A stretch of DNA of 64,000 nucleotides, taken from contig CBDCCI010000002.1 in the NCBI GenBank assembly GCA_965214705.1, forward strand, positions 2,400,001 through 2,464,000. The letters run 5' to 3'. Each line of letters opens with the position of its first letter. The stretch's first letter is position 1. This document shows, piece by piece, positions 17,568 to 36,039 of the stretch. The translations under genes and the position numbers were made by a program. The notes beneath the pieces were generated by a model. That model had not been told where the DNA came from, ran no database searches, and was given only the letters and a program-made list of their open reading frames with translations. Origin of the DNA: Alphaproteobacteria bacterium (GTDB lineage Bacteria > Pseudomonadota > Alphaproteobacteria > UBA828).

Positions 17568-17990
17568 TAGAGCACAATCCTATCTGACTGAATCGAAAGG
17601 GATTCCCAAGGCGTCTGGTTTGTGCTTCACACTGTCTGCCGGGAGGGAGGCCGGCAGACATGTCGAAAGCGCTTTCCCTTGATCTTCGGGTTCGGGTCCC
17701 TGAGGCGGTGGCCGAGGGCGTGAGCCACCGCGCCGTTGCGGCGCGCTTTGGTGTGAGTGCGGCGAGTGTCAGCCGTTGGTGCAGGCGGGCACGTGTTGAG
17801 GGCGAGTCTCGCCCGAGAGCACTGGGCGGAGACCGTCGCTCCGCTCGCATCGAAGCGCATCGTGCGCTGATCCTCGACGTGCTGGCTGAGACCCCCGACG
17901 TCACCATCGAGGAGTTGCGCCGCCTGCTCGCCGGGCGCGGGCTCGACTTCGGCTATGGCACGATCCAGCGCTTCCTCGTCCGCCAGGATA
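17568..17990 (+). mobile_element. Truncated IS630-family element (left end plus N-terminal HTH ORF from 17660)
   Basis: TAGAGC-type end; MSKALSLDLRVRV..ARFGVSAASVSRW..GGDRRS..PDVTIEEL. Confidence 0.75.
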
Positions 17991-18450
17991 TGGCCTGCAG
18001 CGCGACAGTGGCGGAAAGTATCGACATACAGGGTGCCGGAACCGGCGATACGGCACCGAAACCGCGCGTGGTCGTGGTGGACTACGGGGTCAAGGGAAAC
18101 ATCGTCGACAACCTCGTTCGCAGGGATATCGACGTCACCGTCGTGCCGGCAGAAGCCTCCTCGAGGGACATTCTGGCGCACGATCCCGACGGTATTCTGC
18201 TGTCCAACGGTCCCGGCGATCCGATGGCCGTGGCGCCGTACACCGTTCCCATGATCGAGACCCTGCTCGAGCGGAAGCTGCCGTTCTTCGGCATCTGCCT
18301 GGGGCATCAACTCCTGTCCCTGGCGCTTGGCGGAAAGGTGACCAAGATGCCTTTCAGCCATCATGGCGCCAATCATCCGGTTCTGGAGAAGGCCAGCGGC
18401 CGTGTGGTGATCACCAGCCAGAATCACGGTTTCGTCGTCGACCGCGACAC
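17990..18450 (+). pseudogene. carA: Internal fragment of carbamoyl-phosphate synthase small subunit (class I GATase domain)
   Basis: VVVVDYGVKGNI, DGILLSNGPGDP, FGICLGHQLL, HHGANHPV, ITSQNHGFVVD; lacks the N-terminal domain and the C-terminal HPE. Confidence 0.8.
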
Positions 18451-21318
18451 CTTCCCTCGCATCGCGCCACGCGCCGTCCGAGACGTAGTCGAGCGCCGCC
18501 TCCTTGGGCTCGGAGCGCGACCAGCGCTCGCCAAGGTAAGCCCTGATGTCACTGTCCAGGACCGGGCGCTCCACCTCGTCCTCGGGCCGTCTTCCCGCGA
18601 TGTCGAAGGCGAGCTGCGACCAGTTGACATAGACGTCGATTCCCTCGCGATGCCGAGTCGCGGCGGGATAGATCGTCTCTCGCGCCGGACGGTCGTCCAC
18701 CAGCAGGAAGGCGCGGTCTACGGTCAGCCCCTGGGCCGAGGCGATGGTCATCGCATAGCCGTAGTCGAGCCGGACGTTGTCGTGCCAGTCGCGGATCTCG
18801 TCGTGGCGGAACGCGACACGCCTGCCGTCGTCCGTGCGCGCCGTGATGTGGACGGAAGGCTCAGCCTTCGACTCGTTCCCCGAACTCTCGGACGCGCTCG
18901 TCTTGCCGTCCCTGCGTCCGCCGGCTAGCCGGTTCCGGGCCTTGCGTGACACTGCGGTGTCGTCGCCACGCCGGACTTCGAGGTCTTCCACCGTGACGAC
19001 GGTGCCGTTGAAGAGCTGCTTCTCCCACTGCGTGGAGCCGATGCGGATGCGATCGCCCACGGCGATCTCCAGCGGCTCCGTCACGCGCCCGTCAAGGCCC
19101 CGGCTCACCTCGATCACGGCACGCTTCGCATCGGGCGTCTGCGCAAGCACCCGCAGCCGCATGAGCCAAGACAGCGCCCGCGCCTCGGCCCGCGTGCGAG
19201 CCAGCACCACCGTCGAGGCATCGGGCTCCGCACGCACATGCCGTTCCCAGTCCTCGACGAGCTTGGTCAGGGTCTTCTCTTCGTCGTGGCAGAGATGGAA
19301 GCGGTTGCGCAGATGCCACGCCTCGATCGCCTGCTCTGCCTCTCCGTCCCTGAGCGCCTCCGACACCGCCACCTGCCACGGCGTGAACAGGGGTTTCTTC
19401 TCCATCGCCTCGTAGTCGGCGAGAATCGCGTCGCGCTCCTGGGGATTGGTCAGCCCTGCCCGGAAGCGCGCCTGTTCCGGCGTCTCCTTGTGGACGTGGA
19501 CGAGAACGTCCTCGAGGTCCGCCTTCTGGCGCCTGATGCGGTCGACGCGGACGCTACCGGCGATGTCCCGGATCAGCCTGAGTCCCGGCCCTGCCTCCAC
19601 CGGCTGCTGTTGCCGCGTGTCGCCAGCGAACACCACCTTCGCCTCGTGGCGCTCCGAGAGCTGCAGGATATGATGCGCCTGTCGCGTGGACAGCATCCCC
19701 GCCTCGTCCACCACGATCAGCGTGCGCTTGCCGATCTCCACCTGGTCCTTCGCCGCGAGCTTCAGCAGCTTGTCCACGCAATAGGCACGCGCATCGCAGT
19801 CGTCGCCGAGGGCCACGGCGGTGCGCCAGGCCACGGCGGTCGGCACGATCTCGTAGCCGTGCTCCTTGTGAAGGTCGGTGATGGGCCTGAGCGTCGTGGT
19901 CTTGCCCGAGCCCGCAGCGCCCTCGATTACTGCCACCCGTCCGCCCTTCACCGTGGCATGGTGGATCGTCAGCGACTGCTCTTGGCTCAGCGGATATCCC
20001 TGCTCCAGCAGGGTCTCCAACCTCTCCTTCACCGCCCCTTCCGGCAGGCCGTGGCCGGTATCTTCGGCCATGGCCTCGGCCATGTCGCGCACCGCCTGCT
20101 CGAGGCCGAGATTGTGGCGCGTGGAATAGACCTCCGTGTGGGCCATGCCGGCGCGGGACTCGGCCGTCGGCTTCTTGGGCTCCAGCCGCTCGATCTCCGG
20201 ATTACGGCGCAGCCGCTCGATGGCCGTCCCCACCGCCTCCCGGCCCATCAGACCGGCCGCCGCGTTCGCCGCCGCCTCCACCATGTCCGGGCGCCGGAAC
20301 ACCGCCTCCTCGCGAGCGAGATGGGCGGGGAGATCGTCGAGCCGGTCGGTCAGCTCCCGGATTTCTTCACGGTCGATCCTCACCTCATGGCCGGTCACCG
20401 AGGCGATCAGCGCCTCGCGCTCGCAGAAACCCTCGGCCTCGCCGCGCCAGCGGCGGTGCCTCACCTCCGGGTCATTGTCGTGCGACTTCCCCTCGCGCGT
20501 GAGCTTGTTCACCCCCGCCATGCGGGCAGCATTGCCCAATGACGGGATGCCCAGCTCCCCCGCCCTGGCGACGATCGCCTTCCTGCGCTTCGACCAGAAG
20601 GATTGCAGGTCCTCCGGCATGCCCACGATGCGCGTGAACTCCACGTTGGGACCGTACTGCTGCATCCTGACGCCCAGGTTCTGTTGCAGCTCCCACGCCA
20701 CATAGGCCCGGAACAGGGCGCCCGCCGCCTTCTTCCAGTTGTAGACCGGGTACTGGTGATGCGCCCGCCACTTGCCGTCCTCGCGGGTCCTCGCGAGATT
20801 GAAGATCGTGCAGTGGACGTGAAGCTGCGGGTCGTTCTCCCTGCTGGTACCGTGGACGAAGGTCGCGCCCATCAAGTCCGCCTCCAACGGCCGGGTCACC
20901 CCCTTCTCGCTCACGCGGGTGTAGCTGCAATGCTTCAGCACCGAGTCGTCGAGTGCCGCCCTGGCGGCGGCCACGGCCATTGTCTCGATCCGTTCGCGCA
21001 TCTCCGGCTCTGCGATGGCCCACAGTGCCGACACGCTCTTGTCCACCGAGAACGTCATGTCGATGCCGGGGGAGCGGTCCGGGTTGCCGGCGCGCTGCAC
21101 CAGCTTGCCGGATCCATCAGGAGCGAAGCCCGAGTAGAGGCGATGGAAGTGGCCGCTGTCGACCTTTGCCCCATCCTCCAGACCGAACAGGCCCTTCGGG
21201 TTGAACCAGGTGCCGTCCGGCTCCTCGGCCGCCGTGTAGTACTCGTTGGGGTGCCGGAACGAGCGTTGCTCTCCAGGTAGTATTCGGCAGACGCCATCTG
21301 ACCGATGGTCGCTACCAT
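18450..21318 (-). pseudogene. MOBF (TrwC/TraA-like) conjugative relaxase-helicase; 5' frameshift near 21268 and truncated C-terminus
   Basis: N-terminal AEYY/NEYY tyrosines, DMTFSVDKSVS, HUH motif HGTSRENDPQLHVH, helicase motifs GAAGSGKTT, VVDEAGM, YAMTIASAQGLTVD. Confidence 0.85.
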
Positions 21319-22062: not shown

Positions 22063-22503
22063 AATCAAGGGTCGCAAACGCCACATCCTCACCGACACCG
22101 GCGGCCTGTTGGTTGCCGCTCAGGTCCACGCCGCCAACATCCAGGATCGCGACGGCGCTCCCTCGGTGCTTGCGTCCATCCGCCACGCCTTCCCCTGGCT
22201 GCGTCACGTCTTCGCCGATGGTGCCTATGCCGGCCTCAGGCTCGCGGCGGCTCTGGAGCGGATCGGTCGGTGGACCCTGGAGATTGTCCAGCCCCGGCTG
22301 GTACGCGAGGGTTCGATATCCTGCCGCGCCGCTGGGTGGTCGAGCGCACACTGGCTTGGTTGAACCGCAATCGACGGCTCGCCAAGGACTTCGAGGCCAC
22401 CGTCGCCACCGCCCAAGCGTGGCTCTTCATCGCCAGTGTTCAACTCCTCACCAGAAGACTGGTAAGATACTGAAAATCAATATCTTATTATAGGCCAGAC
22501 TCT
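22063..22503 (+). pseudogene. IS5-family (IS1031/IS427-like) transposase C-terminal remnant
   Basis: [29 protein letters not shown], then a frameshift to [25 protein letters not shown]. Confidence 0.8.
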
Positions 22504-22615
22504 TAGACTATACTCTTCGCGGTCGTTGTCTGCTGGGACATTCGCTGTGAGACAACACCTGGAGTCATGGCGAGATCAGCGGCCTTGATCGGTGTCTTCG
22601 CGGGCGAACCCCTGA

Positions 22616-23350
22616 TCAATAGCCGAGAACGCTGTAGTCGCCGTTCACGATCAGGCGAATCGAGACGTAGAGGCCCAGCAGGGCGAACAGCACCCACGGG
22701 CAATTCAGCGCCCAGATATAGATGTACATATCCTTTCGGCCGAGGCGGCTTTGTCGATTGGCCACGAAGAAGCTGACCCAGTAGACCGACGTCGCGTAGG
22801 TCAACTGCCAGAATATCATCGCTCCCATAATGCCGGCGACGAGGGCGGGCAAGAAATCGACGGTGAAGGCGGCAAAGAGGATCAGCGTCGGTACCGGCGT
22901 TACGAAGCCGTTGGCGATATCTACGTTGTAACCGTATGTGCGCCGGTCCGCGTAGGAACTGTCGAACTGGGAATACGTGGCCCAGACGTCCGCCCACATC
23001 GTCGACGACAATATTCGCGTCAAGGGAACCCTTCCAGTAAGGAATTCGGCGGCTGGTGTCCGGCCCGTTTCCCGCCGGCGTTCGCGCCAGTATTGGGCGC
23101 GCTTCTCGATGTAGTCGCGGTTGAAGAACAGGCATATCTCCCAATGGCAGATCACCAGATTGATGGAAAAGAAGAGGATCAGCAGTGCATGAATGACGTC
23201 GAAATCCCCGCGGACGCCGTAGCGCGCACCGATGCCGGACGCTGTCAGAATTGCGATGACCAGCCCCGTGAATACGACCGGCGCAATCGCCAACCGAGTC
23301 CGGTGGGTGTCGCGACCCGAACGGGTTTGCGCGGCTTGCTTTTCGGCCAT
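22616..23350 (-). CDS. EBP/EXPERA-like membrane protein, putative sterol delta8-delta7 isomerase
   Basis: Several TM helices; WATYSQFDSSY resembles EBP WKEYxxxDSRY; QLTYATSVYW and LNCPWVLF resemble the EBP C-terminal motifs; located in the sterol cluster. Confidence 0.6.
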   Translation of the reverse strand: MAEKQAAQTRSGRDTHRTRLAIAPVVFTGLVIAILTASGIGARYGVRGDFDVIHALLILFFSINLVICHWEICLFFNRDYIEKRAQYWRERRRETGRTPAAEFLTGRVPLTRILSSTMWADVWATYSQFDSSYADRRTYGYNVDIANGFVTPVPTLILFAAFTVDFLPALVAGIMGAMIFWQLTYATSVYWVSFFVANRQSRLGRKDMYIYIWALNCPWVLFALLGLYVSIRLIVNGDYSVLGY

Positions 23351-23538
23351 GTGGTCCCATCCTCTCTGGCGCTGCGGCGTTGCCTCTCGCCCCATTGTAC
23401 CCTGTGGAAAGTTCGACGCCCCGAACAAGGGCGCTACGCCTGGGACTCCGTGGATATCGGCGTCATGAAGCGAGGCATCGGAGTTTCCCATGGCTTTCCG
23501 GTCTTGGGGACGACGTGCGGCTCTGGCAGAATGTGCCC

Positions 23539-24570
23539 ATGAATCGCACCTCCGCCACCCGATCGAAAGCGCGCTCCCTCGCGGGCCTCGCCCCGGACGA
23601 AGTAAAGTCCACGGTCGATGGATACACCGAAATCTTTGACGCCGGCCTGGAGCACAGGAAAGAGCATTATCGCTCGTTCGTGAGTCGCTACTACGACCTG
23701 GCGACCGACTTCTACGAGTTCGGTTGGGGCCAATCCTTTCACTTCGCACCCCGCAGCCGGGGCGAGAGCTTCAAGGCATCGCTGCTCAGACACCAGCATT
23801 TTCTCGCTGAAAAGCTGTCCCTGAAGCCGGGTATGCAAGTAATCGATCTGGGATGCGGGGTCGGCGGACCGATGGGCAATCTGGCCCGTCATTTCGGGGC
23901 GAGCTTTGTCGGCGTCAACAACAACGCCTACCAGATCGAGCGCGCAAGACTGCACACTCGGGATGTCCAGTCGTTATGTCGCTTTATTCACAGTGACTAC
24001 ATGGAGATTCCCGACGACGACGACCGCTACGATGCCGCCATGGCGATCGAGTCCATGCCCCACGCACCCGACAAGACAGCGGCGTTCCGCGAGGTCTTGC
24101 GCGTGCTGCGTCCGGGGGCCTGTTTCGCGGGCTACGAGTGGTGCGTTACCGACATATTTGATACCGGCAAGACGGAGCACCGGCGAATAAAAAACGATAT
24201 CATGGCCGGGAATGGGCTGCCGGATATCGCGACCACGTCGGAAGTTTCCGCCGCATTGCAGACGGCTGGATTCGAGCTCCTGGAAGCGCGCGACCGCGCA
24301 CCCGAAGCGGACCCGGAGATGCCGTGGTACCGTTCCTTGCAGGGCCGCGACCTCAGTCTTTCGAGTATTCCGCGCACGCCGGTCGGCCGCGTTCTGACTA
24401 ATTTCACTTTGCGGGTGGGAGAACGGCTGCGGCTCTTTCCCGAGGGCGCCCGCGCAGTCAGCACGCTCCTGAATGCGGGAGCGGACGCGCTGGTGGACGG
24501 CGGCAAGTCCGGCGTCTTCACGCCGATGTTCTTTTTCCTGGCCCGCAAACCCGGGCGCCCGCGCGACTGA
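23539..24570 (+). CDS. smt: Sterol C24-methyltransferase (ERG6/SMT family)
   Basis: SMT region I FYEFGWGQSFHF, SAM motif DLGCGVGGP, region III IESMPHAP, region IV PGACFAGYEW, C-terminal GVFTPMFFFLARKP. Confidence 0.92.
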   Translation: MNRTSATRSKARSLAGLAPDEVKSTVDGYTEIFDAGLEHRKEHYRSFVSRYYDLATDFYEFGWGQSFHFAPRSRGESFKASLLRHQHFLAEKLSLKPGMQVIDLGCGVGGPMGNLARHFGASFVGVNNNAYQIERARLHTRDVQSLCRFIHSDYMEIPDDDDRYDAAMAIESMPHAPDKTAAFREVLRVLRPGACFAGYEWCVTDIFDTGKTEHRRIKNDIMAGNGLPDIATTSEVSAALQTAGFELLEARDRAPEADPEMPWYRSLQGRDLSLSSIPRTPVGRVLTNFTLRVGERLRLFPEGARAVSTLLNAGADALVDGGKSGVFTPMFFFLARKPGRPRD

Positions 24571-24629: not shown

Positions 24630-27600
24630 TCAGGCGGCAGCCGCTTCGGGCGGGGGTGGCGACGTGTCGGCGGCACACGGAGCGTGGGCGGCGAGACCCA
24701 GCCGCTGGCGGCGGCGCTGCTCGTAGAGGGCGAGCGCGTGCAGCGGGAAATACTGTCGATACAGCACGTAATCCAGGAGCGCCGTGCGGAAGAAGACGCC
24801 CGCCATGTCCTGCTTGGGCCATGTCCCGTCCGCGTCCTGTGCGTCGAGCAGAAAGCGGGCGCCCCGCGAAATCGCGGTCCAGTTCGATTCGCCCGCCTCG
24901 AGGAGCGCGATCAACGCCCACGCGGTCTGGATGACCTGGCTTTCGTCGTGCGGGACATACCGGCCGGTCAGGCATCCGCTGTGGTGCTCGCCCCATCCGC
25001 CGTCTTCTCGCTGGCGCTCCAGCAGCCAGCGGCAGGCCGAGCGAAGCGCCGGATCGCCGGGGCCGGCCCTGGCGGCAAGAAGACCCCTGACCCCGAAGAG
25101 GGTGCCGTAAATGAATTGAACTCCCCATACGCCGCGCCACGACCCGTCGCTTGCCTGGGTCCAGCGAAGCCAGGCACCGGCCCTGGACATGGCGCCCGTC
25201 ACCGCTCCGTTCGCGATTTGCGGAACGTCCTCCATACAGGCGGCGAGCGCCGCGAGGCAGGACGCGGTGCACTCGACATAGGATTGCTCGGTCATCGAAT
25301 CGCCGAACATCTCGGCCGGATTCATCCACTCCAGACCGAAAGCCGAGCGTCGCGCCTCGTAGCTGCCGAAGCCGCCATCGCGGTTCTGGCAGCGCAGCAT
25401 GAACCCGACCGCATCGCGCAACGCGCTTGCGTGCGCAGCACCGCGACCGGCGGCGTGAAGTCCGAGCACCGCTTCCGCAGTGCAGTCGCTCACCGGCCAG
25501 CCGTGCCATCCTCCGGCAAAGCACCAGCCGCCCCTGGGGTCGGTTCGATAGGCCTCGCGAAACCCTTCGAAGCTGGCGGCGATCTGTTCCCCGAGCAGGA
25601 AGTCGGCGCCGCGCTGCAGCGCGTCCCCTACCCCGCCGAACGCGGGCACCGCCGCCAGCGCCTGCAAGGCGAAGCCGCTGTCCCACGAGGCGCTTCTCGC
25701 GCCGACGACACGCGCACCCTCTTCCTCGTCTTCCCAGATCCAGTCGTCCAGCTTCGCGAGCGCCTGGCGCAGATCGGCGTCGTCCGGATCGCGCAGCCAC
25801 AGGGCAAGCATGTTGAGAAGGCCGCTCACCGGAGAGATGCTCGTATGGCTGGTGGTCTGCAGCTCCCATCTGATCTGCCGGACGATCGCCTCCGTGCATC
25901 GGGCACGCAGGCGTTTGCCGTGGAGCCGATTGAACACGCGCGCAATCTTGTATCCAACCTTGAGCCACACGCTCGGCCGCGCGTAGAGGTCGGCCTCCCG
26001 CAGGCGATTGCGGGCGGCGGAGAAATCGACCTCGGCAAAGCCATGGGGGTACAGCTCCTCCCGCAACGACGCGATCGCGGGCGTGACGGGCGCCTGGAAG
26101 CGGTGCGGGTAGATCGCCGCCATGGCCATGTAGATGAGCCGGGTATGGCAGTACCAATTCGAAGGATGCAGGGGCAAGCGGCGCGGCAGGCTCCACAGTT
26201 CCGGCAGAACGGCGTTGACCCCGCGCCAGTCGTAGAGGTTCAGCAGCGCCAGCCAGAACTTTCCCCAGCTCGGAATGCCCACGATCCCCTCGGCCTGGAT
26301 GAAGCGCCGGGCCGGCTCGACCAGCGGATCGTCCCGCTCGACCCCGAGCAGCCTGGCCGCGACGTAGACCAGGGCGGTGACGAAGAGGTGGGGCGAAGAG
26401 TGCTCGTGCAGACCCCACGAGCCCGCTTCGAGACGGGTCCGTTCGAACGAGCGCAGCACGCGCCGGCGCCGGCCGGGCTCGAGCGGCCGCCCGATGATGT
26501 GGTGCAGCAGCACATATTGCGCGGTGAGCATGGGGCACCAGACCATCTCGCCCTCCCAGCCGCCATCCTCGCCCTGGAGGCTCAGGAGGTGCGCGGTCGT
26601 GCTCCCCAGAGCCGGACCGGCATCGGGCGCCTCGGAGTCCTTCGGCCGGCCGGACCCGGAAGCGTGGGGCCGCGGCGGCATGGAGTGCAAAAGTGCGCGG
26701 GCCAGGCTGTCCAGGGCTCGCTCGTCATTCCGCCCGCCCTGGCGTCTCGACTGGCGTAACTGCAGAGCCCAGCGCAGGAGCCACAAGAGACGAACGGTGA
26801 GAGCCCCGAAGATCTTCAGGCCCCGACGCGGAGCGAACCGGCGCAAGGAGAGCGGAATCTCCACGGCCGCCGCACGGGCCGCCGTTGCGAAAAACGCGAG
26901 ACCCATCTCGAGCGCGGATCGGTCTTCGCAGGCGAGTATCCGCGTGGTCCGGTCCCGGTAATAGGAGTTTGTCCGCAATCCTCGGTAGACCGCGTGTCTC
27001 ATCGCCACCGCCTCGGCCCGATGATCGGCAAAGACCTCGTAGAGCCCCATGGCGAGCAGCTCCGGCACTTGGGTGGCCCGGAAACGCCCGGCGGCGAACT
27101 CGCGAAAGCTGCCGCTCTCGGCGAGGGCAAGCGCGTCACCGAAACCGAGGGTCATGCCGACCGCCGTCATGGGATGGTAGTGCCCGGCCGCGTCGCCGAT
27201 CAGCACACGACGCGGGGTACCGTATGTGACTCGCGGCCGCAGCTGATTGGCCGCAACGTGGAATTGCCCCGCCCGCACCGCTTCGACGAACCCCGGCCTG
27301 AGAGCTTCCGGCAGCAGAACGGCATGGGATTCGGTCAGGAAGCCGATCCGGTCCTGGCGTGTCCAGCGGTCCAGCGGAACGTCGACGATGATCCGGACGC
27401 AACCCTTTGCCAAACCGTATGCGAGAATCGGCCCCGGCCCGCCGAGCAGCACATGCCCGTGACCCTCGAAGGGCAGGCTCACGTCGCTCACCGTGATCCC
27501 CAGCATCCGCGAGCAGAGCATCGGGTCTGTCGACAGGCCCAGGGATTGGCGCACGATCGACGCCCGGCCGTCGGCGCCGACAATCCGCGCGGCGTCGAGG

Positions 27601-28043
27601 GTGTGAACCGTGCCGTTGTTGCTGTAGGACAGCCGCTCGTCTTCGACCGCATTCACCCGCGCATGGGTGAAGAAATCCACATCCGCCTCCTTCTCGACGG
27701 CTTCCCGCAGTGTCGAGACGAGCAAGGCGTGTTCGCAAGCCAGACCCTGCGAGCCATTCGTGTAGGGAAGGACGATCGGCTCCGAGCCGTCTTCCGGGAA
27801 CACCACGAAACCCCTGCCCGTGGCGCTGCGGGGCAGGGTGTCGAGCCCGATCCCGATGTCCTGCAGTATCTGTACCCCAGGTGGATGCAGCCATTCGCCC
27901 GCCAGGCGCTCTGACCCCTTGGGATTCGCTTCGAGCAGAACCACCCGGGCGCCCTTCCGCGCGTGAGCGAGCGCGCACAGGCTCCCGACCGGCCCCGCGC
28001 CGACAATGGCCACGTCGTAACGCCGCGACGCGGCGCCGCTCAT
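24630..28043 (-). CDS. Squalene epoxidase - oxidosqualene cyclase fusion protein (~1137 aa)
   Basis: N-half: IVGAGPVG, RLAGEWLHPPG, GADGRAS, IGDAAGHYHPMTAVGMT (SQLE motifs). C-half: QW repeats, WYCHTR, catalytic HGWPVSDCTAE (OSC type, not SHC DXDD). ATG overlaps the CYP51 stop (ATGA). Confidence 0.9.
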   Translation of the reverse strand: MSGAASRRYDVAIVGAGPVGSLCALAHARKGARVVLLEANPKGSERLAGEWLHPPGVQILQDIGIGLDTLPRSATGRGFVVFPEDGSEPIVLPYTNGSQGLACEHALLVSTLREAVEKEADVDFFTHARVNAVEDERLSYSNNGTVHTLDAARIVGADGRASIVRQSLGLSTDPMLCSRMLGITVSDVSLPFEGHGHVLLGGPGPILAYGLAKGCVRIIVDVPLDRWTRQDRIGFLTESHAVLLPEALRPGFVEAVRAGQFHVAANQLRPRVTYGTPRRVLIGDAAGHYHPMTAVGMTLGFGDALALAESGSFREFAAGRFRATQVPELLAMGLYEVFADHRAEAVAMRHAVYRGLRTNSYYRDRTTRILACEDRSALEMGLAFFATAARAAAVEIPLSLRRFAPRRGLKIFGALTVRLLWLLRWALQLRQSRRQGGRNDERALDSLARALLHSMPPRPHASGSGRPKDSEAPDAGPALGSTTAHLLSLQGEDGGWEGEMVWCPMLTAQYVLLHHIIGRPLEPGRRRRVLRSFERTRLEAGSWGLHEHSSPHLFVTALVYVAARLLGVERDDPLVEPARRFIQAEGIVGIPSWGKFWLALLNLYDWRGVNAVLPELWSLPRRLPLHPSNWYCHTRLIYMAMAAIYPHRFQAPVTPAIASLREELYPHGFAEVDFSAARNRLREADLYARPSVWLKVGYKIARVFNRLHGKRLRARCTEAIVRQIRWELQTTSHTSISPVSGLLNMLALWLRDPDDADLRQALAKLDDWIWEDEEEGARVVGARSASWDSGFALQALAAVPAFGGVGDALQRGADFLLGEQIAASFEGFREAYRTDPRGGWCFAGGWHGWPVSDCTAEAVLGLHAAGRGAAHASALRDAVGFMLRCQNRDGGFGSYEARRSAFGLEWMNPAEMFGDSMTEQSYVECTASCLAALAACMEDVPQIANGAVTGAMSRAGAWLRWTQASDGSWRGVWGVQFIYGTLFGVRGLLAARAGPGDPALRSACRWLLERQREDGGWGEHHSGCLTGRYVPHDESQVIQTAWALIALLEAGESNWTAISRGARFLLDAQDADGTWPKQDMAGVFFRTALLDYVLYRQYFPLHALALYEQRRRQRLGLAAHAPCAADTSPPPPEAAAA

Positions 28044-29449
28044 CGGAAGACGCTCGGCTGCGCGCAGCGACGGTAGCGGACCCGGCACGGTCTCTCGGGT
28101 CCCGTCACCCAGCTGCCGTAGTTCGGACGCGGAAACGCGCCGCTGGGAGTGAAGTCGAAACGATCGAGCAGAACGGTCCAGATCGCCTTGAGCTGCATGT
28201 AGGCGAAGTTCTTACCCATGCACGCGTGCTTGCCGCCGCCGAAGCCGATCAGGGCGTAGCGGTGTTGCCTGTCCTCGCTGGCGGGAGGCGCGAAACGGTC
28301 GGGGAAGAAGCGCTCCGGGTCGGCGAATATGTGGGGCAAGCGGTGAGAGACCGCCGGCGACACCATGGCCATGGAGCCGGCGGGCACGACACGGCCTCCG
28401 TAGCGCAGGGGTTCGAGCACCTTGCGGATCAGCAATATCAGCGGCGGGTGCAGCCGCTCGCACTCGCGGACGGCATTCTCCAGAGCCGGCTGGCGCTGGA
28501 GACTGTCGATGCTCATGCTCCCCGCTTCGCGATAGACGTCCTGCACCTCGTCTCTTACCCGCGCCAGGTACGCCGGCGCCCGGAGCAGCTCCAGACCGGT
28601 CCAGGTCGCGAGCACCGCACTGGTGTGCTGGCCCGCGAACAGCACCGTCAGCAGGATCCCCGTGATCTCGTCGTCGCTCAGGGCGCGGCCGCTCTTGTAG
28701 CGGGCGTTCATGAGCGTCTGCATGAAGTCGTCGGGGCTGGCCCCCGCATTCCGGCGCGCCGCCATGATCCCGCCGAAGAGCTCCGCCACCCGTCGCCGGG
28801 CCCTGTCGCGCTTTCGATGCGACGCAACGGGAAGCCTGGGAAGAAAGAATCCCAGGGTGTTAATGCCCTTCTGCAGGTCGTGGTAGGTCTCGGCAAAGCC
28901 GGTATCCACCCGATCGCGGACTTCCTGTCCGATCAGGCAGCGGCTGGCGATCTTGACCGTGAGCTCGTTCATCGCGTGCGGCAGATCGATTTCCCCATCC
29001 TCGCCCAGGGCGTCGGCGAACTGCCGCGCCTCATCGAACATGACGAGGGCGAACCTGCGCATTGCCGCCTCACGGAGCGCTGGAAAGAGAAAGCCCAGCT
29101 GCTCCGCCATGATGTCGGGGGAGGTGTCGTAGGCCACGCCGCGCCCGAAGATGGGCACGGTGAAGCGGTAGACGGCCTTGGCGTTCAACTGCTCCTCGGG
29201 CGTCCTGAAATAGAAGTCGTGGGCTTGGGGACCGGAGAAGAGAACGAAAGCGCGGGTACCGAGCCGGAAGCGGAAGAGCTCACCGTGCTCGCGCCAGCCG
29301 CGGCTCAACATGGCGACCGGATCTCTCTGGAACTCCGGCAAATGGCCGATCAGCGGCCAGCGGCCCGCAAGCTCGGGAAGGGGCTCGTCTGCCCGCGGCG
29401 GCAGATTCGCCGTAGGCAGGGTCGCCATGCTGTCGGTTCGGTTGGCCAT
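28040..29449 (-). CDS. cyp51: Sterol 14-alpha-demethylase (cytochrome P450 CYP51)
   Basis: YRFTVPIFGRGVAYD, I-helix LFAGQHTS, ECERLHPP, haem motif FGGGKHACMG. Confidence 0.92.
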   Translation of the reverse strand: MANRTDSMATLPTANLPPRADEPLPELAGRWPLIGHLPEFQRDPVAMLSRGWREHGELFRFRLGTRAFVLFSGPQAHDFYFRTPEEQLNAKAVYRFTVPIFGRGVAYDTSPDIMAEQLGFLFPALREAAMRRFALVMFDEARQFADALGEDGEIDLPHAMNELTVKIASRCLIGQEVRDRVDTGFAETYHDLQKGINTLGFFLPRLPVASHRKRDRARRRVAELFGGIMAARRNAGASPDDFMQTLMNARYKSGRALSDDEITGILLTVLFAGQHTSAVLATWTGLELLRAPAYLARVRDEVQDVYREAGSMSIDSLQRQPALENAVRECERLHPPLILLIRKVLEPLRYGGRVVPAGSMAMVSPAVSHRLPHIFADPERFFPDRFAPPASEDRQHRYALIGFGGGKHACMGKNFAYMQLKAIWTVLLDRFDFTPSGAFPRPNYGSWVTGPERPCRVRYRRCAQPSVFR

Positions 29450-29457
29450 CTCCGCTC

Positions 29458-30558
29458 TCAATGGATGAAGGGCAGCATCGCGAAGCGCGCCCGCTGCGTG
29501 TAGCGCTCCCACAGCTCGCCGTACTTGGCGCGGCAGCGGCGCTCGTCGCGTCTCGAACGGTGCCACAGCAAGCCCGCTAGCCACGCCGGCAACAGGAAGG
29601 GAGCCCAGGACGTAAGCCCGGTGGTCAGGGCGAAGGCGAGGTAGACGCAGATCTCGCCGGTGTAGTTGAGGTGCCGGCCGATGCCCCAGAACCCGGAGAC
29701 CAGGAGGCGCCCGTCCAGGGTACGGGCGGGCTTGCCCCAGATCCTAACGTTGGAATCGCGCTTGAAGCGGTGCTTCTGCTGATTGGACCCGCGGAAGAGC
29801 CAGAAGCCGAAAACGAAGAGCACGACGATCCCGGCGGCGGCGGCCGGAGACAAGGGCTCCGGTGCGTGAACCAGCCACCAGCCGGGGAGACAGTAGAAGA
29901 AGGGCACCAGCACGTAATCGCCCCAGACCAGCATCCATCCGAAGCGCTCGCGGACGATGTCCCAGGTATGGATCATCCCCTGTTCGAACTGGAAGTAGTT
30001 GAGCACGTAGAGGAAGGTGAAGGTCTGGTAGAGCATCATCGCCAGGGTCAGCTCGCCGTAGGTCTCGTACTGCACGGCGGCAAACGATGCGTTGAAGAGC
30101 GCTAGGCCGATGAGGGAGGGGCAGTAGCTGAAGAGCTTGATATCCAGCCCGAGCCAGGATGGAGCGGCGTCCACCCCGTAGAAGAAGTCCCGCCATGATC
30201 TGGGCGATGCATGAGGCTTTCGCACCCCGCGCAGGTAGAGCCAGCCGGAGAGGGCGAACGCGAATCCGTTCGCCACGACGAACAGGGCGAGCAAGTGGGT
30301 ATGCAGCACCGAAAGGGAGAGCACGCCGGAGGCTTGCGCGCCGCACGCCGCAATCATGACGATCAGATAGAGCGCGAGGCCGTTGAGCTTGTAGACGCGC
30401 TCGTTCCCGTCGGCATCCGGGCCCGTGATCCGACGACCCGGCAGCAGCAGCGAAGCCACGAAGAGGAGGGCGATGAACCCCAGCACCATCGCCGCCGCCT
30501 CGAGCAGGGTCTCGCCCGAGAGCGCCGACGAGAGGTTGAGCGCTTCAGGCGGCGGCAT
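29458..30558 (-). CDS. ERG24/DHCR7/LBR-family sterol reductase (probable C14 reductase)
   Basis: DIVRERFGWMLVWGD, NQQKHRFK, LLVSGFWGIGRHLNYTGE, RDERRCRAKYGELWERY. Confidence 0.9.
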   Translation of the reverse strand: MPPPEALNLSSALSGETLLEAAAMVLGFIALLFVASLLLPGRRITGPDADGNERVYKLNGLALYLIVMIAACGAQASGVLSLSVLHTHLLALFVVANGFAFALSGWLYLRGVRKPHASPRSWRDFFYGVDAAPSWLGLDIKLFSYCPSLIGLALFNASFAAVQYETYGELTLAMMLYQTFTFLYVLNYFQFEQGMIHTWDIVRERFGWMLVWGDYVLVPFFYCLPGWWLVHAPEPLSPAAAAGIVVLFVFGFWLFRGSNQQKHRFKRDSNVRIWGKPARTLDGRLLVSGFWGIGRHLNYTGEICVYLAFALTTGLTSWAPFLLPAWLAGLLWHRSRRDERRCRAKYGELWERYTQRARFAMLPFIH

Positions 30559-31642
30559 CGCCGCTCTCCGACCCGCGCGCCAGATGTTCCTGCCACTTGC
30601 GCACGGTCACTTTCTGAAAGGCCCTGACCACCGGATTGAACTCGACAGGACGGGCGTCCCAGTGTCTTTCGTATCCCTCCTGCTCCGCCTCCAGCGCGAA
30701 CCGGTCCTGGGTGAGCAGGGGGGCGATGAGCAGGCGATTGGAGACCTTCATGACCGCGGTCATGGCGAAACGGGGAATGCGCACCGGCAGCAGAGGTACT
30801 TTCAGCGACTTGAAATAGAACAGGAAGAACACCCGGCTGGTGCGCTCGTCGACCGGCAGCACGAAGAGCCAGTGCTTTATTGCGTCGTCGGTGTTCGACC
30901 ACTGGTAGGGGTACTCGTAGCAAAGCTCCATGCGGTTGGTGTTGAGCCGCCGATGATCGACGAAGAGGCCCGAGATGCGCCCGCGCCCCACGTGCGTGTC
31001 GTAGGCGAGATGCACGTTGTCGCCGAGGGTCTCGCAGCGGGTGAGGGTGGCCCCGTCGAAGGGCCGGTAGCGGCGGTGCAGGTGTGCGTGGGTGAAGTCG
31101 CTCACATTGTCGATCACCATCGAGTGGTGTGCCGACCAGGTGAAACAGAGCGGCACGCAGGCCCAGCGGCCGGATCCCTCGAGCTCAGGAATGTCCGGAA
31201 TCCGGCGCTCCTCCGCCAGCGCCGGATCTCCCGGGAAGAGCCAGATCAGACCGTAGCGGACCTTCACCGGATAGGTCTTGAGCGCAAGATTCGGAAAGCT
31301 TCGCCCCTCGCGATCATGGGGCACCCCGGCGGGACGCCCCTTCCCGCCATACTCCCAGCCATGGTAGGCGCAGACGAGCCGGCATCCCTGCACGTCGCCC
31401 AGGGAGAGCTTGAGCTGGCGATGCGCGCAGCGATCCTCGACCGCCTGGAAGGTGCCGTCCTTTCCCCGGAAGAGCGCGATGGAACGCTTCCAGAAGACGA
31501 CCTCGATCACCGTCTCCGGCTTGATCCGGCGCAATTCCTCGACCGGATACCAGTAATTCGGGTCCATGCCCGCGGCGCGAGCCTGCTGGCGCAGGTTGCC
31601 GGCGTCCTCGAAGCCGGGCGGCGCGGCGGGCGCCGCCCTCAT
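30545..31642 (-). CDS. sdmA: Rieske non-haem iron oxygenase, SdmA-like sterol C4-methyl oxidase
   Basis: Rieske CAHR..CAYHGW; mononuclear Fe site DNVSDFTHAHLH; position between an SDR and sterol genes. The sdmA label is inferred from context. Confidence 0.7.
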   Translation of the reverse strand: MRAAPAAPPGFEDAGNLRQQARAAGMDPNYWYPVEELRRIKPETVIEVVFWKRSIALFRGKDGTFQAVEDRCAHRQLKLSLGDVQGCRLVCAYHGWEYGGKGRPAGVPHDREGRSFPNLALKTYPVKVRYGLIWLFPGDPALAEERRIPDIPELEGSGRWACVPLCFTWSAHHSMVIDNVSDFTHAHLHRRYRPFDGATLTRCETLGDNVHLAYDTHVGRGRISGLFVDHRRLNTNRMELCYEYPYQWSNTDDAIKHWLFVLPVDERTSRVFFLFYFKSLKVPLLPVRIPRFAMTAVMKVSNRLLIAPLLTQDRFALEAEQEGYERHWDARPVEFNPVVRAFQKVTVRKWQEHLARGSESGDAAA

Positions 31643-32267
31643 GGCGCGCTCCCGCCTGCCATCATCCGCATGCCCTGGTCCGGCGCGGGATCACCCTCCT
31701 CACGCGTAACATGCCGACTCGCGGCGTCCTCGCACGGGCGCTTCGCGTGCGGGTTCGCGATCTTGTTGCGGCCGTAGTGGAACGCATAGGCCTCATGAAC
31801 CGCGGCACGGAGGCCGGTCGGCCGATAGCCGAGCTCCCGTTTCGCCTTGGAGATGTCGGCGTGGCGGCACTTTCGCAACAGGCGTATGGCGCCGGGGGTG
31901 AAGCGCTGGGGAAAGCCCGGGTGAACCCGACTCAGATAGAAGCTCGCGATTTCGGCAAAGGTTAAGGGTTGGGCAGGCTCTCTCTCGAGAGCCTGCCCAA
32001 CCCTTTTGAACGAAGCCGCGGGCCACGAGAGGCGAAGTTGAGCTATGTGGAAAGTGCGCTGATGTCAGCGTCAGGCGGCATCCACCGGCAGCAGAGTTGC
32101 GCATAAAATCGACGCTCGCGCCGGTCTTTCGGCAGGCATGCGGGCGCACGCTGCGAGGACTGAGCGGGGTGTGAGCCGAGGGCTGTCAGCCCGGCTCAAG
32201 CGGAGACAGGTTCGGTCGTGCGTCGGCGCTTTGGCGCCGTTGCGCGGGGCCGAAGCGAGCGGGCGTC

Positions 32268-33509
32268 TCACGGTTTCCCCCTGTGGGTCGGCGGCAGCGC
32301 CGGCGGGCCGCGCGTCGAGCGGGGCTCATGGCGGCGGCGGATTTCGCGGACGAGGCGCATGACGCCGCCGCAGTGGGGGCAGGCCACGGGCGCGGTGCCG
32401 ATCTCGGGCTCTTCGTCGGGCTCGGCCCGAGCGCCGTCCACGCTTCCCTCGGGGGCGGCGCAGCCGAGGGCGCCGAGAGCCTGGCGTGCTCTCTCCAGCG
32501 TGCTGGCGCGGCAGCCGTTGGCGAGGATGCCGAAGTAGCGAGTGCGGTGCATGCCGTCCGGCAGGACGTGCCTCAGGAAGCGGCGGATGAACTCGTCGGC
32601 GCTCACGGTGGCGATGCCGTAGCGCGGCTTTCTCTGCCCCGGCGCCTTGGGCTTTCGGTGGCGGAAGGAGACCGTCTCGCCGTCGAAGGAGACGATGCGG
32701 CTGTCGGAGATGGCGATCCTGTGCGTGTAGTGCGAGAGGTACCGGAAGACCTGCTCAGGCCCGCGGAAGGGCCGCTTGGCGTAGACCACCCAGTCCCTGG
32801 CCCGGGCGGCGGCAAGCGTGGCGTGGAACTCGCCGGGATTGGCGAGGTGGGCGACGGTGCCGTGGAACTCCAGGTCCCCCCGGCCGTGGGCGCGGGCGAG
32901 CTCCTCGAGGAAGAGGCGGCGGAACAGGCTGCCGAGGACCTTGACGGGGGCGAGGAAGGTGGTGCTCCCCGTCTTCCACTCGCCACTGTCTACGTCGAAG
33001 CCCGCGTTGGGCACGACCACGTGCAGGTGCGGGTGGAAGCGGAGCTTCTGATCCCAGGTATGGAGGACCGCGGTGCCGCCGATGCGCATGCCGCCGTGGC
33101 GGGGATCGGCGGCGATGGTGCGCAGGGTCTCGGCGACGGCCCGGAAGAGGATGTCGAACACCACCCTGCGGTTGCAGAAGGCAATGGCGGCAACCTCCTT
33201 GGGCAGGGTGAAGACCACATGGAAGTAGGGCACCGGCAGGATGTCCCCGGCGCGCTCCTCGCTCCAGAGGTTGGCGGCGAGACCCTGGCAGGTGGGGCAG
33301 TGGCGGTTGCGGCAGGAGTTGAAGAGCGGATGCTCGCGCCCGCAGCCCTCGCAGGCGTACATGTGGCCGCCGAGCACGGCGGTGCGGCACGCCTCGATGG
33401 CGCCCATGACCTTGAGCCGGGCGGCGTCGATGCGCCCTTTGTGGCGCTCACGGAAAGCGGCGCCGGCGCGGCGGAAGATCTCCGCCACGCCCGCGCGTTC
33501 GGCCTCCAC
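32268..33509 (-). CDS. IS91-family (HUH/Y2) transposase
   Basis: Zn-binding CRT..CEGC..NSCRNRHCPTC; HUH LHTW..HPHLH; YLSHYTHR; RYFGILAN. Confidence 0.9.
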   Translation of the reverse strand: MEAERAGVAEIFRRAGAAFRERHKGRIDAARLKVMGAIEACRTAVLGGHMYACEGCGREHPLFNSCRNRHCPTCQGLAANLWSEERAGDILPVPYFHVVFTLPKEVAAIAFCNRRVVFDILFRAVAETLRTIAADPRHGGMRIGGTAVLHTWDQKLRFHPHLHVVVPNAGFDVDSGEWKTGSTTFLAPVKVLGSLFRRLFLEELARAHGRGDLEFHGTVAHLANPGEFHATLAAARARDWVVYAKRPFRGPEQVFRYLSHYTHRIAISDSRIVSFDGETVSFRHRKPKAPGQRKPRYGIATVSADEFIRRFLRHVLPDGMHRTRYFGILANGCRASTLERARQALGALGCAAPEGSVDGARAEPDEEPEIGTAPVACPHCGGVMRLVREIRRRHEPRSTRGPPALPPTHRGKP

Positions 33510-33515
33510 GCGCCG

Positions 33516-34394
33516 TCAGTTGCGCAACGCTGCGAAGCCTGAGATCGGGTGGTCGAGGCCCTCGAACATCTTGCCGGTGACGCGGGCGTAGTGACGGGTC
33601 GTGTTCGCGCTTCGATGGCCGAGCATGTCCCGGATCACCTCGATATCGCCGCCGCGCTCGAGGAGATGGGTCGCCGCCGAATGGCGCAGGCAATGGAAGG
33701 TGTAGCTGCGGTCGAGCTCGGCAATGTCGCGCGCCCTCCTGAAGGCGGCCTGCAAGGTCTCCGTTGCGATGGGCCTGTCGAGCGAGACGCCGTAGAAGAG
33801 CCAGCTCGTCGGACGCGGCCAGATGTTCCTGTAGTAGACGCGCAAGTAGTGGATGACGATGTCCGGCAACGGTGCCATTCTCTCGGTGCCGCCTTTGCCG
33901 GAGGGGATGTGCAGCAGCTTCTTCTCCGACAGGATGTCGCCGACCTTGATGGCCAAGGTCTCGGAGATGCGGAGCCCGCCGCCATAGCCGGTGACAATGG
34001 CAGCACGGTGGCGGAGGTCGGGTGTCGCAAGGATGAGGTGCTCGACCTCCTGCTCCGACATGTAGCGCGGCAGCTTGCCGGGCTTCTTGCGGGAGCGCAG
34101 GCCGGCGACATGGTCAGGCCAGCCGAGTGTGTCGATGTAGAGGAAGTTCAGCGCGGCGAAGGAGACGTTGGTCGTGCCCGGACTGAGCCCCTTGTCGATC
34201 CGCCCCAGGTACCACTGGCGCACCTGCTCGGCGTCGAGCTCGTCCGGCGAGGCGTCGTAGTACCTGGCCAGGTTCTTGATCTCGCAGATGTAGGCCTTGG
34301 ACGTGCTCGCGGCCAGATTGGCGATGCGGAGCTGCTCCTCCATGCGCTGGCGAAGAGGGGTGACGGTGTTCGTGTCGCACGCGGTCCCGGTCAT
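33516..34394 (-). CDS. Tyrosine recombinase/integrase
   Basis: GLRISE, KGGTER, HCLRHSAATHLLE, LGH, TRHY; N-terminal TPLRQRM typical of IS91-associated integrases. Confidence 0.9.
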   Translation of the reverse strand: MTGTACDTNTVTPLRQRMEEQLRIANLAASTSKAYICEIKNLARYYDASPDELDAEQVRQWYLGRIDKGLSPGTTNVSFAALNFLYIDTLGWPDHVAGLRSRKKPGKLPRYMSEQEVEHLILATPDLRHRAAIVTGYGGGLRISETLAIKVGDILSEKKLLHIPSGKGGTERMAPLPDIVIHYLRVYYRNIWPRPTSWLFYGVSLDRPIATETLQAAFRRARDIAELDRSYTFHCLRHSAATHLLERGGDIEVIRDMLGHRSANTTRHYARVTGKMFEGLDHPISGFAALRN

Positions 34395-36039
34395 TATCGA
34401 TCTCCCTGGATCGCGACGGCGCGCCGCCGGACCGATCCGGCGACGGTCCGTCGCAGGGGTCGATGCTAACCACTGGTGATCGGGAGGCTGCTGGGGATCC
34501 GCCACCCGACGGGCGGAGCGCCACTGACGCAACCGGGAAGCGAACGCACAGAACAAACGGCACCCGCGACGCCTCGGAAATGAATGAACTCTACGCCGCT
34601 AACTCCGCGTAGCGGCTTCGTTCAAGACGAGCATGAGGCGGGTCGGAATTCGCCGGCGCGGCCGCGGGACGCCGGAGACCTCCTCGTAGAGATCCAGGAT
34701 ATCCGAGATGGTCTGGTACTCGGTGCTGAAGATGTACTTTTCGCCCGAGCGACCGTGGTGCATGCACAACACGTGCCCTTCGACGATGTCGCGCGCCGCG
34801 ACGAACTCGAAACCGCCATCGACGTAGGCACGGAGCTTGCCGTTGGTGTAGTCGCACAGGGTTCTTCCCAGTCGCGAGGGGAAGAAGTCGGCGCCCCCCA
34901 CCACCGCACAGCACGTCGCGACCACCACGTCCTGCCCCGATGCCGCCGCGCGCCAGCACTCCTGCTCGACGAGCGACTTGCTGCGCTCGTAGGGCATCGT
35001 GCGCTCCATGGGGTAGAACTGCATGGTCTCGTTGCTGGGAGCGGAGGGATCGTCCAGGTCGTATCCGACCGCGCTGAACGAGCCCGTCACCACCACCCGG
35101 CCGGCCCCCGCCTCCCGCGCCGCCTGCAGCACGTTGCGGGTACCGAGAACGTTGCACTCAAACACGTCGCGGCGATGGGCGCGGTTGCCTTCGATGGTCG
35201 AGACGTAGGCCGCGCAGTGATAGACGCCCTGACATCCCGTGATCGCCCGCCTGATGTCATCCAGATCCCGAATGTCGCCGAACGCGCGTTCGACCTCGAG
35301 ACCTTCCAGGCCCTCGTTGTTGTCCTCGTGTCTCAACAACACTCGGACCCGCACGCCCTCGTCGAGCAGCCGGCGCACGAGGTTGGCGCCGACATGCCCG
35401 GCCGAACCGGTAACGAAGACGGGCGGCATCGAAGATCCCGCCGGCATGCTCGATTCCGAAGTCATGGATGCCGGATTCCGTCAAGCGGAACGCGGGGCCG
35501 ATCCCATTCCGCGGGATGTTCGCAAGGTCTTACAGACACCGTCGCGCGCCCGCCGGCCGGCGTCAAAATAGCCCCTGCGGCGAAGCCAAGCCGTGCCCGT
35601 TCGCGCTCCCACATACCGCGAATTCTCCATGTCTGTCCCTCCATGTTCGGTAAGCCCGCGGCACCGACCGACCGGTACGAATCCAGACAGGGAAAAATCT
35701 ATGCGATTTAGTCACATAGCGTCCAAGAAAATACACTCATAGCGCTCATAAGTTATGCCAATGTATCGCACTGCCGCGTCGTGCTTCTGCGTGCTGATGA
35801 TCTCCATACTCGTCCAGACCCCTTGGCAAGGTCTGTTGGATATACCGAATCCCTCCGCCGATGAGATTGCCATTGCGGTCTCCTTCGGCGTTCTGGCCAA
35901 TATCAATGTCAGTTCCCTGCAAACCGCCGAAGACATGGAATGGGTCTGCGACCTCGTAACTGAAGCCGAGGGTCAGCCCCTCAGAGCCCTGCTGAATGTT
36001 CGAGTGCTCCCACACCAGGCTGATGTGAATATAGAAAAA

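Follow-up and report, generated by a model that had tools for sequence, protein, structure and literature searches.

A fused squalene monooxygenase-oxidosqualene cyclase gene, probably of the MsbE type, at the end of a sponge-type sterol operon in an alphaproteobacterium

The DNA considered here, referred to as the window, is a stretch of 64,000 nucleotides from an alphaproteobacterium of the GTDB lineage UBA828 (assembly GCA_965214705.1, contig CBDCCI010000002.1, positions 2,400,001 to 2,464,000 of the forward strand), and it harbors a gene in which a squalene monooxygenase is joined to an oxidosqualene cyclase. The fused gene lies on the minus strand at 24630-28043 and forms one open frame of 1137 amino acids when read from the ATG at 28043. 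The same frame reaches an upstream GTG, which would extend it to 24630..28088 (-) and 1152 amino acids. The ATG shares bases with the end of the preceding P450 gene, start and stop overlapping as ATGA, 13 of 20 stand-alone epoxidase relatives start at the same residue, and a database protein that is 98% identical, P0002, is likewise 1137 amino acids long. Very probably, the gene encodes a naturally occurring, bifunctional MsbE-type enzyme, is the last gene of a sponge-type sterol operon, and arose by read-through. Its parts are listed below, with residues in the numbering of the fused protein (P0001) and with domains called at the curated cut-offs of Pfam.

24630..28043, minus strand: fused squalene monooxygenase-oxidosqualene cyclase gene
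26871..28019, minus strand: FAD-binding / squalene epoxidase domain (residues 24-406; motifs GxGxxG, DG and GD; Pfam)
26601..26870, minus strand: junction (residues 407-496)
24720..26600, minus strand: oxidosqualene cyclase domain (residues 497-1123; motif DCTAE; Pfam and TIGR01787)

The epoxidase half is recognized by two overlapping Pfam models, FAD_binding_3 (PF01494; residues 24-323, 85.8 bits against a cut-off of 22) and SE (PF08491; residues 170-406, 84.8 bits against a cut-off of 20.1), and the cyclase half by SQHop_cyclase_N (residues 497-788, 172 bits) and SQHop_cyclase_C (residues 799-1123, 173 bits). The window has a G+C content of 64% and contains many long spurious frames; the fused frame stands beyond chance because its Pfam domains have E-values of 1e-24 to 1e-51 and because the frame is conserved in 79 of the 80 related loci described below. 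Class A flavoprotein monooxygenases are recognized by the fingerprints GxGxxG, DG, and GD, which are found here as G30-x-G32-x-x-G35, D173-G174, and G298-D299. The motif glycines and D299 are invariant among 48 aligned fused proteins, and D173 is nearly so (at least 90%). The best solved relative of this half is human squalene monooxygenase (6c6n, E 6.2e-27), the next match being at 1e-9.

In the cyclase half, the DCTAE motif (D868-E872, window 25473-25487) is also invariant among the 48 aligned fused proteins. The segment VSDCTAE, residues 866-872, aligns with residues 453-459 of human lanosterol synthase, in which the catalytic aspartate is D455. Two of the 80 loci, the sponge-clade copies L041 and L066, carry the variants DCTGE and DCTAQ, both of which retain the aspartate. 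The QW repeat pattern gives 2 strict and 6 loose matches in this half. The NCBIfam model for squalene/oxidosqualene cyclases, TIGR01787, scores 500.3 bits and exceeds its cut-off of 322.7; the model specific to oxidosqualene cyclases, TIGR03463, stays below its own, and the NCBIfam hopene cyclase model reaches only 271 bits against a cut-off of 431. Human lanosterol synthase is the best solved relative (1w6k, E 2e-127, residues 495-1135).

The integrity of the frame was examined by aligning contigs of four public sequencing runs to window positions 25900-27400. A 7038-base contig of run X2, which is possibly the source run, spans this entire interval without a single difference. Run X5, from another study, supplies a 1760-base contig over 25900-26996 with 23 substitutions and no gaps, and run X8, a sponge metagenome of a third study, supplies a 669-base contig over 26523-27191 with 15 substitutions and no gaps. 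No inserted or deleted letters are listed for the contigs against 25900-27400, which answers the concern, raised with the initial annotation, that an indel in the linker might have joined two genes artificially.

When prokaryotes were scanned at one genome per species, 399 stretches encoding relatives came to light, the best 80 of which (67-98% identical) were examined. A single frame runs over both domains in 79 of these 80 loci, some of which come from records titled 'chromosome: 1'. The exception, L004, belongs to the same genus (G014:C71:36707-40159) and has a lone in-frame TAG at residue 665, in the cyclase half, which could reflect either a pseudogene or a sequencing error. Protein searches point the same way, since SE and cyclase Pfam marks occur together in 120 of 120 among the matches listed, with lengths of 996-1168 amino acids. 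The uninterrupted frame of about 1137 amino acids that had been described at the outset, with its SQLE-like domain, linker, and complete cyclase bearing DCTAE and QW motifs, is thus borne out by Pfam, by the motifs, and by the 79 loci, and the database search for single proteins of this architecture that was proposed with it is answered by the 120 matches.

The junction leads from an epoxidase tail (residues ~395-466, hydrophobic to amphipathic) through a Pro/Gly/Ser spacer of hydrophilic character (467-492) into the N-terminal tail of the cyclase; the linker string quoted in the initial annotation corresponds to residues 469-492 (window 26613-26684). Across 78 sequences, the junction aligns with an identity of 0.47 and a gap fraction of 0.00. 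Its hydropathy profile resolves into two moderately hydrophobic stretches, one amphipathic stretch, and one hydrophilic spacer. No transmembrane helix is found in the fused protein, in which the highest 19-residue Kyte-Doolittle mean is 1.47, and the protein would bind the membrane peripherally.

The origin of this junction can be traced by projecting the termini of stand-alone relatives onto the fused protein, for which 20 stand-alone epoxidases, picked from 120 such proteins listed (456-490 amino acids), and 9 stand-alone cyclases (644-689 amino acids) were used. All 20 epoxidase C-termini project to residues 475-498 and all 9 cyclase N-termini to residues 467-485. The termini therefore meet at residues 467-498, so that the junction is made up of one tail and one head and no linker domain has been added. 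Met470 (26679-26681) lies at the projected N-terminus of the stand-alone cyclases and may be the relic of a cyclase start codon. The Nostocales provide a comparison. In loci L089, L145, L118, and L091, the epoxidase and cyclase genes lie in phase, as against the close relatives L090, L092, and L093, which are fused; at the exact point where sense codons carry the fused forms onward, the split forms are interrupted by one or two in-frame stops, and the start methionine of the cyclase is retained inside the cyanobacterial fusions. To judge from these sequences, the fusion is a simple read-through of adjacent epoxidase-then-cyclase genes after loss of a stop codon.

Such fusions are not confined to a single lineage. 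When the cyclase half is compared with a library clustered at 50% identity, it matches at least 7 fused clusters that are interleaved with single ones, and all 6 fused clusters tested carry all four domains (the long cluster representatives P0335 and P0338 were left out of this domain scan). A second genome scan, with a distant fused protein as the query, gave 72 loci, 68 of which have a cyclase frame. These comprise 28 fused loci by a BLAST test and a further 7 by a motif test (7 of 7 confirmed by Pfam), 11 split loci in the order epoxidase then cyclase, 10 split loci in the reverse order, and 12 with the cyclase only. The two steps had been taken at the outset to be normally the work of separate genes; this holds for eukaryotes and many bacteria, as the 21 split loci of these 68 illustrate, but the fusion is by no means unknown, being both in print and abundant. 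A cyclase tree, built by a quick search with SH-aLRT branch support only, to which the window was added along with 10 of the 80 sponge-clade loci, requires at least five changes between the fused and split states, at least three of which are forced by well-supported branches. The sponge clade on this tree has 21 rows, all fused, with a support of 100, and is placed among fused Myxococcota lineages.

Cyclase relatives in other architectures also turned up. P0316 (1022 amino acids) has a squalene/phytoene synthase domain (29-327) fused to a complete squalene-cyclase-type domain (388-1020) and shares 34% identity with the window's cyclase half. P0311 (1063 amino acids) and P0361 (1008 amino acids) are cyclase relatives with N-terminal extensions of ~370-420 residues that have no Pfam match.

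Both domains of the fused protein are under purifying selection. Over 10 pairs of sequences, the ratio of nonsynonymous to synonymous substitution rates (dN/dS) is 0.23-0.36 in the epoxidase part and 0.10-0.19 in the cyclase part, to which may be compared the omega of 0.17 given for the LSS gene in the excerpts of PMC9531527.

The product of the cyclase half is most likely lanosterol, as judged from residues that line up with the human enzyme. V866 aligns with human V453, a position at which, in the portion of PMC4919349 drawn on here, valine went with lanosterol in every bacterium tested and isoleucine is found in cycloartenol synthases. A797 aligns with human T381, and both A797 and H862, the latter at the position of human C449, are unlike the lanosterol-type pattern. 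The same portion of PMC4919349 counts H449 among the cycloartenol-type residues, so that the lanosterol call is provisional and rests on one residue.

The fused gene stands at the end of an operon with the order sdmB-sdmA-erg24-cyp51-(sqmo~osc), in which the CYP51, ERG24, and SdmA genes lie upstream of it on the same strand with overlapping ends. A sterol methyltransferase gene converges on it from the other side. The first gene of the operon, which resembles sdmB and would encode a 3-beta-hydroxysteroid dehydrogenase (3-beta-HSD), is split by an insertion element. The neighboring features are as follows.

22503..23360, minus strand: gene without a Pfam or NCBIfam match, 285 amino acids, adjoining the methyltransferase gene; relative in 28 of 80 loci
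23380..24570, plus strand: sterol methyltransferase, transcribed toward the fused gene (methyltransferase domains in addition to Pfam Sterol_MT_C at 73.1 bits)
28040..29584, minus strand: CYP51-type sterol 14-demethylase, given as the longest frame (Pfam p450 196.5 bits, from residue 71)
29458..30558, minus strand: ERG4/ERG24-family sterol reductase (Pfam PF01222, 229.9 bits)
30545..31642, minus strand: SdmA-like Rieske oxygenase for C-4 demethylation (Rieske and VanA_C domains)
31645..31960, minus strand: 3' remnant of the sdmB-like gene (tblastn with the intact protein of locus L001: residues 279-385, 96%)
31961..34623, no strand assigned: insertion element of 2663 bases (IS91-type Y2 transposase at 32268-33509 and tyrosine recombinase at 33516-34556)
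34624..35465, minus strand: 5' part of the sdmB-like NAD-dependent 3-beta-HSD/epimerase gene, first of the operon (Pfam Epimerase 119 bits, 3Beta_HSD 71.7 bits)

The best solved matches of the P450 are all CYP51 enzymes (6mcw, E 7e-103), and its true start probably lies further downstream than that of the longest frame. The SdmA-like protein scores 401 bits with the NCBIfam model of 4beta-methylsterol monooxygenase, NF052579, which is below the cut-off of 600. The operon order of the window recurs in 62-67 of the 80 loci, where relatives of CYP51 are found in 67, of SdmA in 66, of ERG24 in 65, of SdmB in 62, and of the methyltransferase in 55. The sterol methyltransferase (SMT) gene is often accompanied by three uncharacterized genes (PMC8237579), and the gene at 22503-23360 may be one of these companions. 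Substrate could be supplied through three genes of the squalene/phytoene synthase family (SQS_PSY) in the genome. A promoter scan of the window returned 1 site against 1.2 expected by shuffling and carries no weight.

A squalene-hopene-cyclase-like gene lies ~10 kb before the window (G000:C3:2388828-2390705; a 786-amino-acid frame, PF13243 at 444.5 bits), and the organism probably also makes hopanoids. A gene of this kind is found in most genomes of the genus, even in those that have no sterol gene.

The element within sdmB lies 318 bases upstream of sdmA, and one of its ends bears a hairpin-forming inverted repeat. It is missing at the sdmB site in loci L001, L002, L003, and L005, and sdmB is intact in L001. 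The window's own genome (contigs C1-C3) contains 66 full-length copies of the element at 97% identity or more, together with 65 partial matches, and at 7.9 Mb it is the largest of the genus, the others being 2.8-6.3 Mb; this looks like an ongoing expansion of insertion sequences. With sdmB split and no second copy of it in the genome, the capacity for C-4 demethylation has probably been lost in this genome, and the insertion may also cut the fused gene and the other downstream genes off from the operon promoter.

Within the window's genus, the full-length fused gene is found in 8 of 21 genomes, the window's own included; 20 genomes from elsewhere in the family, order, and class all lack it. 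The 80 loci belong, by their record titles, to metagenome-assembled genomes (MAGs) of Alpha- and Gammaproteobacteria, Nitrospirales, Binatia, Acidimicrobiales, Opitutales, Bryobacterales, Nitrospinaceae, and Longimicrobiales, and several are MAGs with sponge-related titles. Cultured strains among the relatives in the second scan and in a further search (best 80 of 139 relatives) are cyanobacteria only, of which Calothrix rhizosoleniae SC01 has the fused form; we know of no sterol data for this strain. That further search was checked for a cultured myxobacterium that makes sterols and has the fused gene, which would have lent indirect evidence of function, and its best 80 relatives include no such strain.

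Synonymous divergence (dS) between the window and the copies in other phyla is only 0.5-0.8, which fits recent transfer and agrees with PMC9531527 in the passages available. Horizontal transfer of the operon between phyla is well supported. The ease of transfer foreseen in the initial annotation is therefore upheld, but for a different unit: the mobile unit is the operon of five genes, whether or not the methyltransferase module accompanies it, and not the fused gene alone. In 52 of the 80 loci, DNA similarity to the window ends sharply at the start of sdmB, and the other edge coincides with the end of one of three genes: the fused gene, the methyltransferase gene, or the neighboring gene at 22503-23360.

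A TrwC-type relaxase/helicase gene (17627-21100, minus strand, 1157 amino acids) and a DDE transposase gene (12471-14282, minus strand) lie within a few kb of the sterol cluster. Part of the relaxase region is shared by L003 at 86% DNA identity, and no relative was found beside the cluster in the other loci. A conserved mobile vehicle was rejected, as relatives of the TrwC relaxase, the IS91 transposase, the integrase, and the DDE transposase accompany 0 of the 80 loci; relatives of a DDE fragment are found in 2 of the 80. A tRNA-linked island was rejected too, there being no tRNA genes in the window, as was a departure in base composition, the fused gene having a G+C fraction of 0.684 against 0.667-0.669 for the three contigs.

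The fused enzyme is already published and is common in public genomes; it is not new. The nearest known system is MsbE, the fused enzyme of the msbABCDE cluster in a gammaproteobacterial symbiont of the sponge Melophlus sarasinorum, as described in the excerpts of PMC7074536 (record MT026193.1, named in PMC9531527). As far as those excerpts go, and with likeness judged by architecture and gene order, both enzymes have the two domains in one polypeptide, epoxidase then cyclase, and both clusters run from an NAD(P) oxidoreductase through a Rieske oxygenase, a sterol reductase, and a 14-demethylase to the fused gene. The window differs in that its host is an alphaproteobacterium, that sdmB is split by an insertion sequence, and that a sterol methyltransferase gene lies downstream. 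MsbE is also tied to sarasinoside saponins, whereas nothing here points to saponins.

Two further accounts, again in the passages covered, describe what is evidently the same operon, with the same sponge habitat signal and the same spread across phyla with incongruent trees. Brown et al. (PMC10070321) mention 'fused SMO/OSC homologs' in the sterol clusters of sponge metagenomes, and PMC9531527 reports ERG24-CYP51-LSS 'clusters of steroid genes' in 115 of 537 MAGs from Ircinia sponges, distributed over 10 phyla, with horizontal transfer and with gene trees at odds with the genome tree. The latter names the gene only as LSS/ERG7, and its 3765-column alignment would fit the fused length. Those passages of the two papers contain no analysis of the junction, its origin, or its recurrence. 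The fusion is not mentioned in the main texts of PMC8237579 or PMC12414744; the supplements of PMC10070321, PMC9531527, and PMC8237579 may hold more, including fused genes, their hosts, and the gene at 22503-23360. What is added here is the read-through origin, the minimum of three changes between fused and split forms, the purifying selection on both domains, and the insertion in sdmB.

Other relatives show how the same two activities can be arranged. In Calothrix sp. NIES-4105 (L155) and Nostoc sp. NIES-4103 (L118), the same two families occur in the same order and are 45-55% identical, but they make up two polypeptides. The human enzymes 1w6k and 6c6n share the catalytic aspartate of DCTAE and the FAD motifs, but are separate proteins of the endoplasmic reticulum; the cyclase half here lacks the first ~78 residues of the human cyclase (the alignment begins at human residue 79) and has the epoxidase in their place. 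The CYP51-ferredoxin fusion of Methylococcus capsulatus (PMC7947880, consulted in excerpt) is likewise part of a bacterial sterol pathway, but it joins an enzyme to its redox partner rather than two consecutive steps.

In the scheme that we favor, an N-terminal FAD-dependent squalene monooxygenase would make (3S)-2,3-oxidosqualene, which the C-terminal oxidosqualene cyclase would fold into a protosterol, most likely lanosterol. Both activities are presumed from the domains and motifs. The gene originated when a stop codon was lost between adjacent genes lying in the order epoxidase then cyclase. The fusion would bring the benefit of a guaranteed 1:1 dosage of the two enzymes and of their placement on the same patch of membrane, and a direct channelling of oxidosqualene is possible.

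Several observations weigh against this scheme in one part or another. The alignment of the epoxidase half with 6c6n is confined to residues 24-319, and TIGR03463 (osq_cycl), although by far the best-scoring model for the cyclase half, gives 742.9 bits against a cut-off of 851. The residue H862 already described sits uneasily with a lanosterol product. Neither an activity measurement for any fused form nor a demonstration that fusion alters flux was found in the papers searched. The contigs of an RNA-library run, X17, which may contain DNA, reach only 26083-26532 and 27142-27400 and so do not include the junction, and in this particular genome sdmB is interrupted. The spacer between a motif of one domain and a motif of the other measures 204 residues for 70 of 78 sponge-clade genes, and across 37 fused genes of other lineages it varies over 172-219 residues, which led to the rejection of a strict universal spacer length. 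Finally, dN/dS in the junction ranges over 0.13-1.17 and reaches 0.5-1.2 in distant pairs. The variable spacer and the near-neutral junction together weaken the idea of a fixed geometry.

That the fusion is a neutral accident, a lost stop codon between adjacent, co-translated genes that is tolerated because both enzymes are peripheral membrane proteins, with no kinetic coupling or channelling, is a serious possibility, although not one that we would put first. One or two point changes suffice to make the join, closely related loci switch between the fused and the split state with the repeated changes seen on the cyclase tree, spacer length is not kept across lineages, and in distant pairs the junction evolves at a dN/dS of about 1. 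Against this stand the preponderance of fused forms among second-scan loci in the epoxidase-then-cyclase order (35 of 46, that is 28 + 7 against 11 split), the uniformly fused sponge clade on the tree, the retention of the frame in 79 of 80 loci at a dS of 0.5-0.8, which suggests that the fused state is at least maintained, and the complete lack of fusions among the 10 loci with the order cyclase then epoxidase. The opposite extreme, that the fusion is a repeatedly evolved adaptation in which tethering hands 2,3-oxidosqualene straight to the cyclase, is more doubtful still. If it were true, the tether would forestall a further round of epoxidation and spare the bacterial membrane a reactive epoxide, and the operon would work at once in a new host, which could explain why the fused rather than the split version has spread through at least 10 phyla of sponge symbionts. 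It is also unlikely that the window's gene, although intact, is silent or decaying in a pathway that is being lost because the insertion has uncoupled the downstream genes. The position of the element within sdmB, the 66 copies indicative of ongoing expansion, the TAG stop in the same-genus relative L004, and the absence of the gene from 13 of 21 genomes of the genus all lend themselves to that view; on the other side, the fused gene, cyp51, erg24, and sdmA are free of stops here, the insertion copies are 97-100% identical (most at least 99.7%), which makes the event recent, and the differences between the fused gene and its counterpart in L001 are mostly synonymous (dN/dS 0.16-0.36).

The remaining alternatives concern the protein and its product, and they fare less well. 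A cyclase half that makes cycloartenol, parkeol, or a non-sterol triterpenol in place of lanosterol is improbable; H862 and the TIGR03463 score speak for it. The valine at the human V453 position predicts lanosterol in the excerpts cited above, the same call is made for MsbE in those of PMC7074536, and the accompanying CYP51, ERG24, and SdmA genes fit a lanosterol-type route. A slimmer prospect is that internal initiation at Met470 also yields a separate cyclase, so that fused and free enzyme would coexist. Met470 does coincide with the projected start of the stand-alone cyclases, and the cyanobacterial fusions do keep that methionine, but the 20 bases preceding its ATG contain no Shine-Dalgarno-like motif, leaving no internal ribosome-binding site evident, and the residue is replaced by isoleucine in some sponge-clade sequences. 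Least credible of all, and rejected here, is an assembly or indel artefact concealing two true genes, because contigs from three studies cross the junction without a gap, 79 of 80 independent assemblies are open across both domains, and all 120 relatives among the matches listed are fused. The preferred reading is thus still a natural MsbE-type bifunctional enzyme born of read-through.

As the existence of the fused enzyme has already been published, its remaining value lies in biochemistry. It would represent a compact natural module from squalene to protosterol, which is attractive as a part for engineering sterols and triterpenoids in E. coli, where squalene-producing strains are described in PMC12414744 and PMC12146001. 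In the Nostocales, a single stop codon separates fused from split forms, which provides a clean pair from nature in which to see what fusion does. The fused gene also marks the sterol operon of sponge microbiomes, and the operon bears on the contribution of bacterial symbionts to 'sponge' sterane biomarkers, a theme of PMC10070321 in the passages covered.

Elsewhere in the window, two paralogous hybrid sensors are encoded at 40324-42705 (plus strand) and 42986-45448 (minus strand). They share the same unusual single-chain architecture, in which GAF, PAS, histidine kinase, and receiver domains are followed by a winged-helix DNA-binding output.

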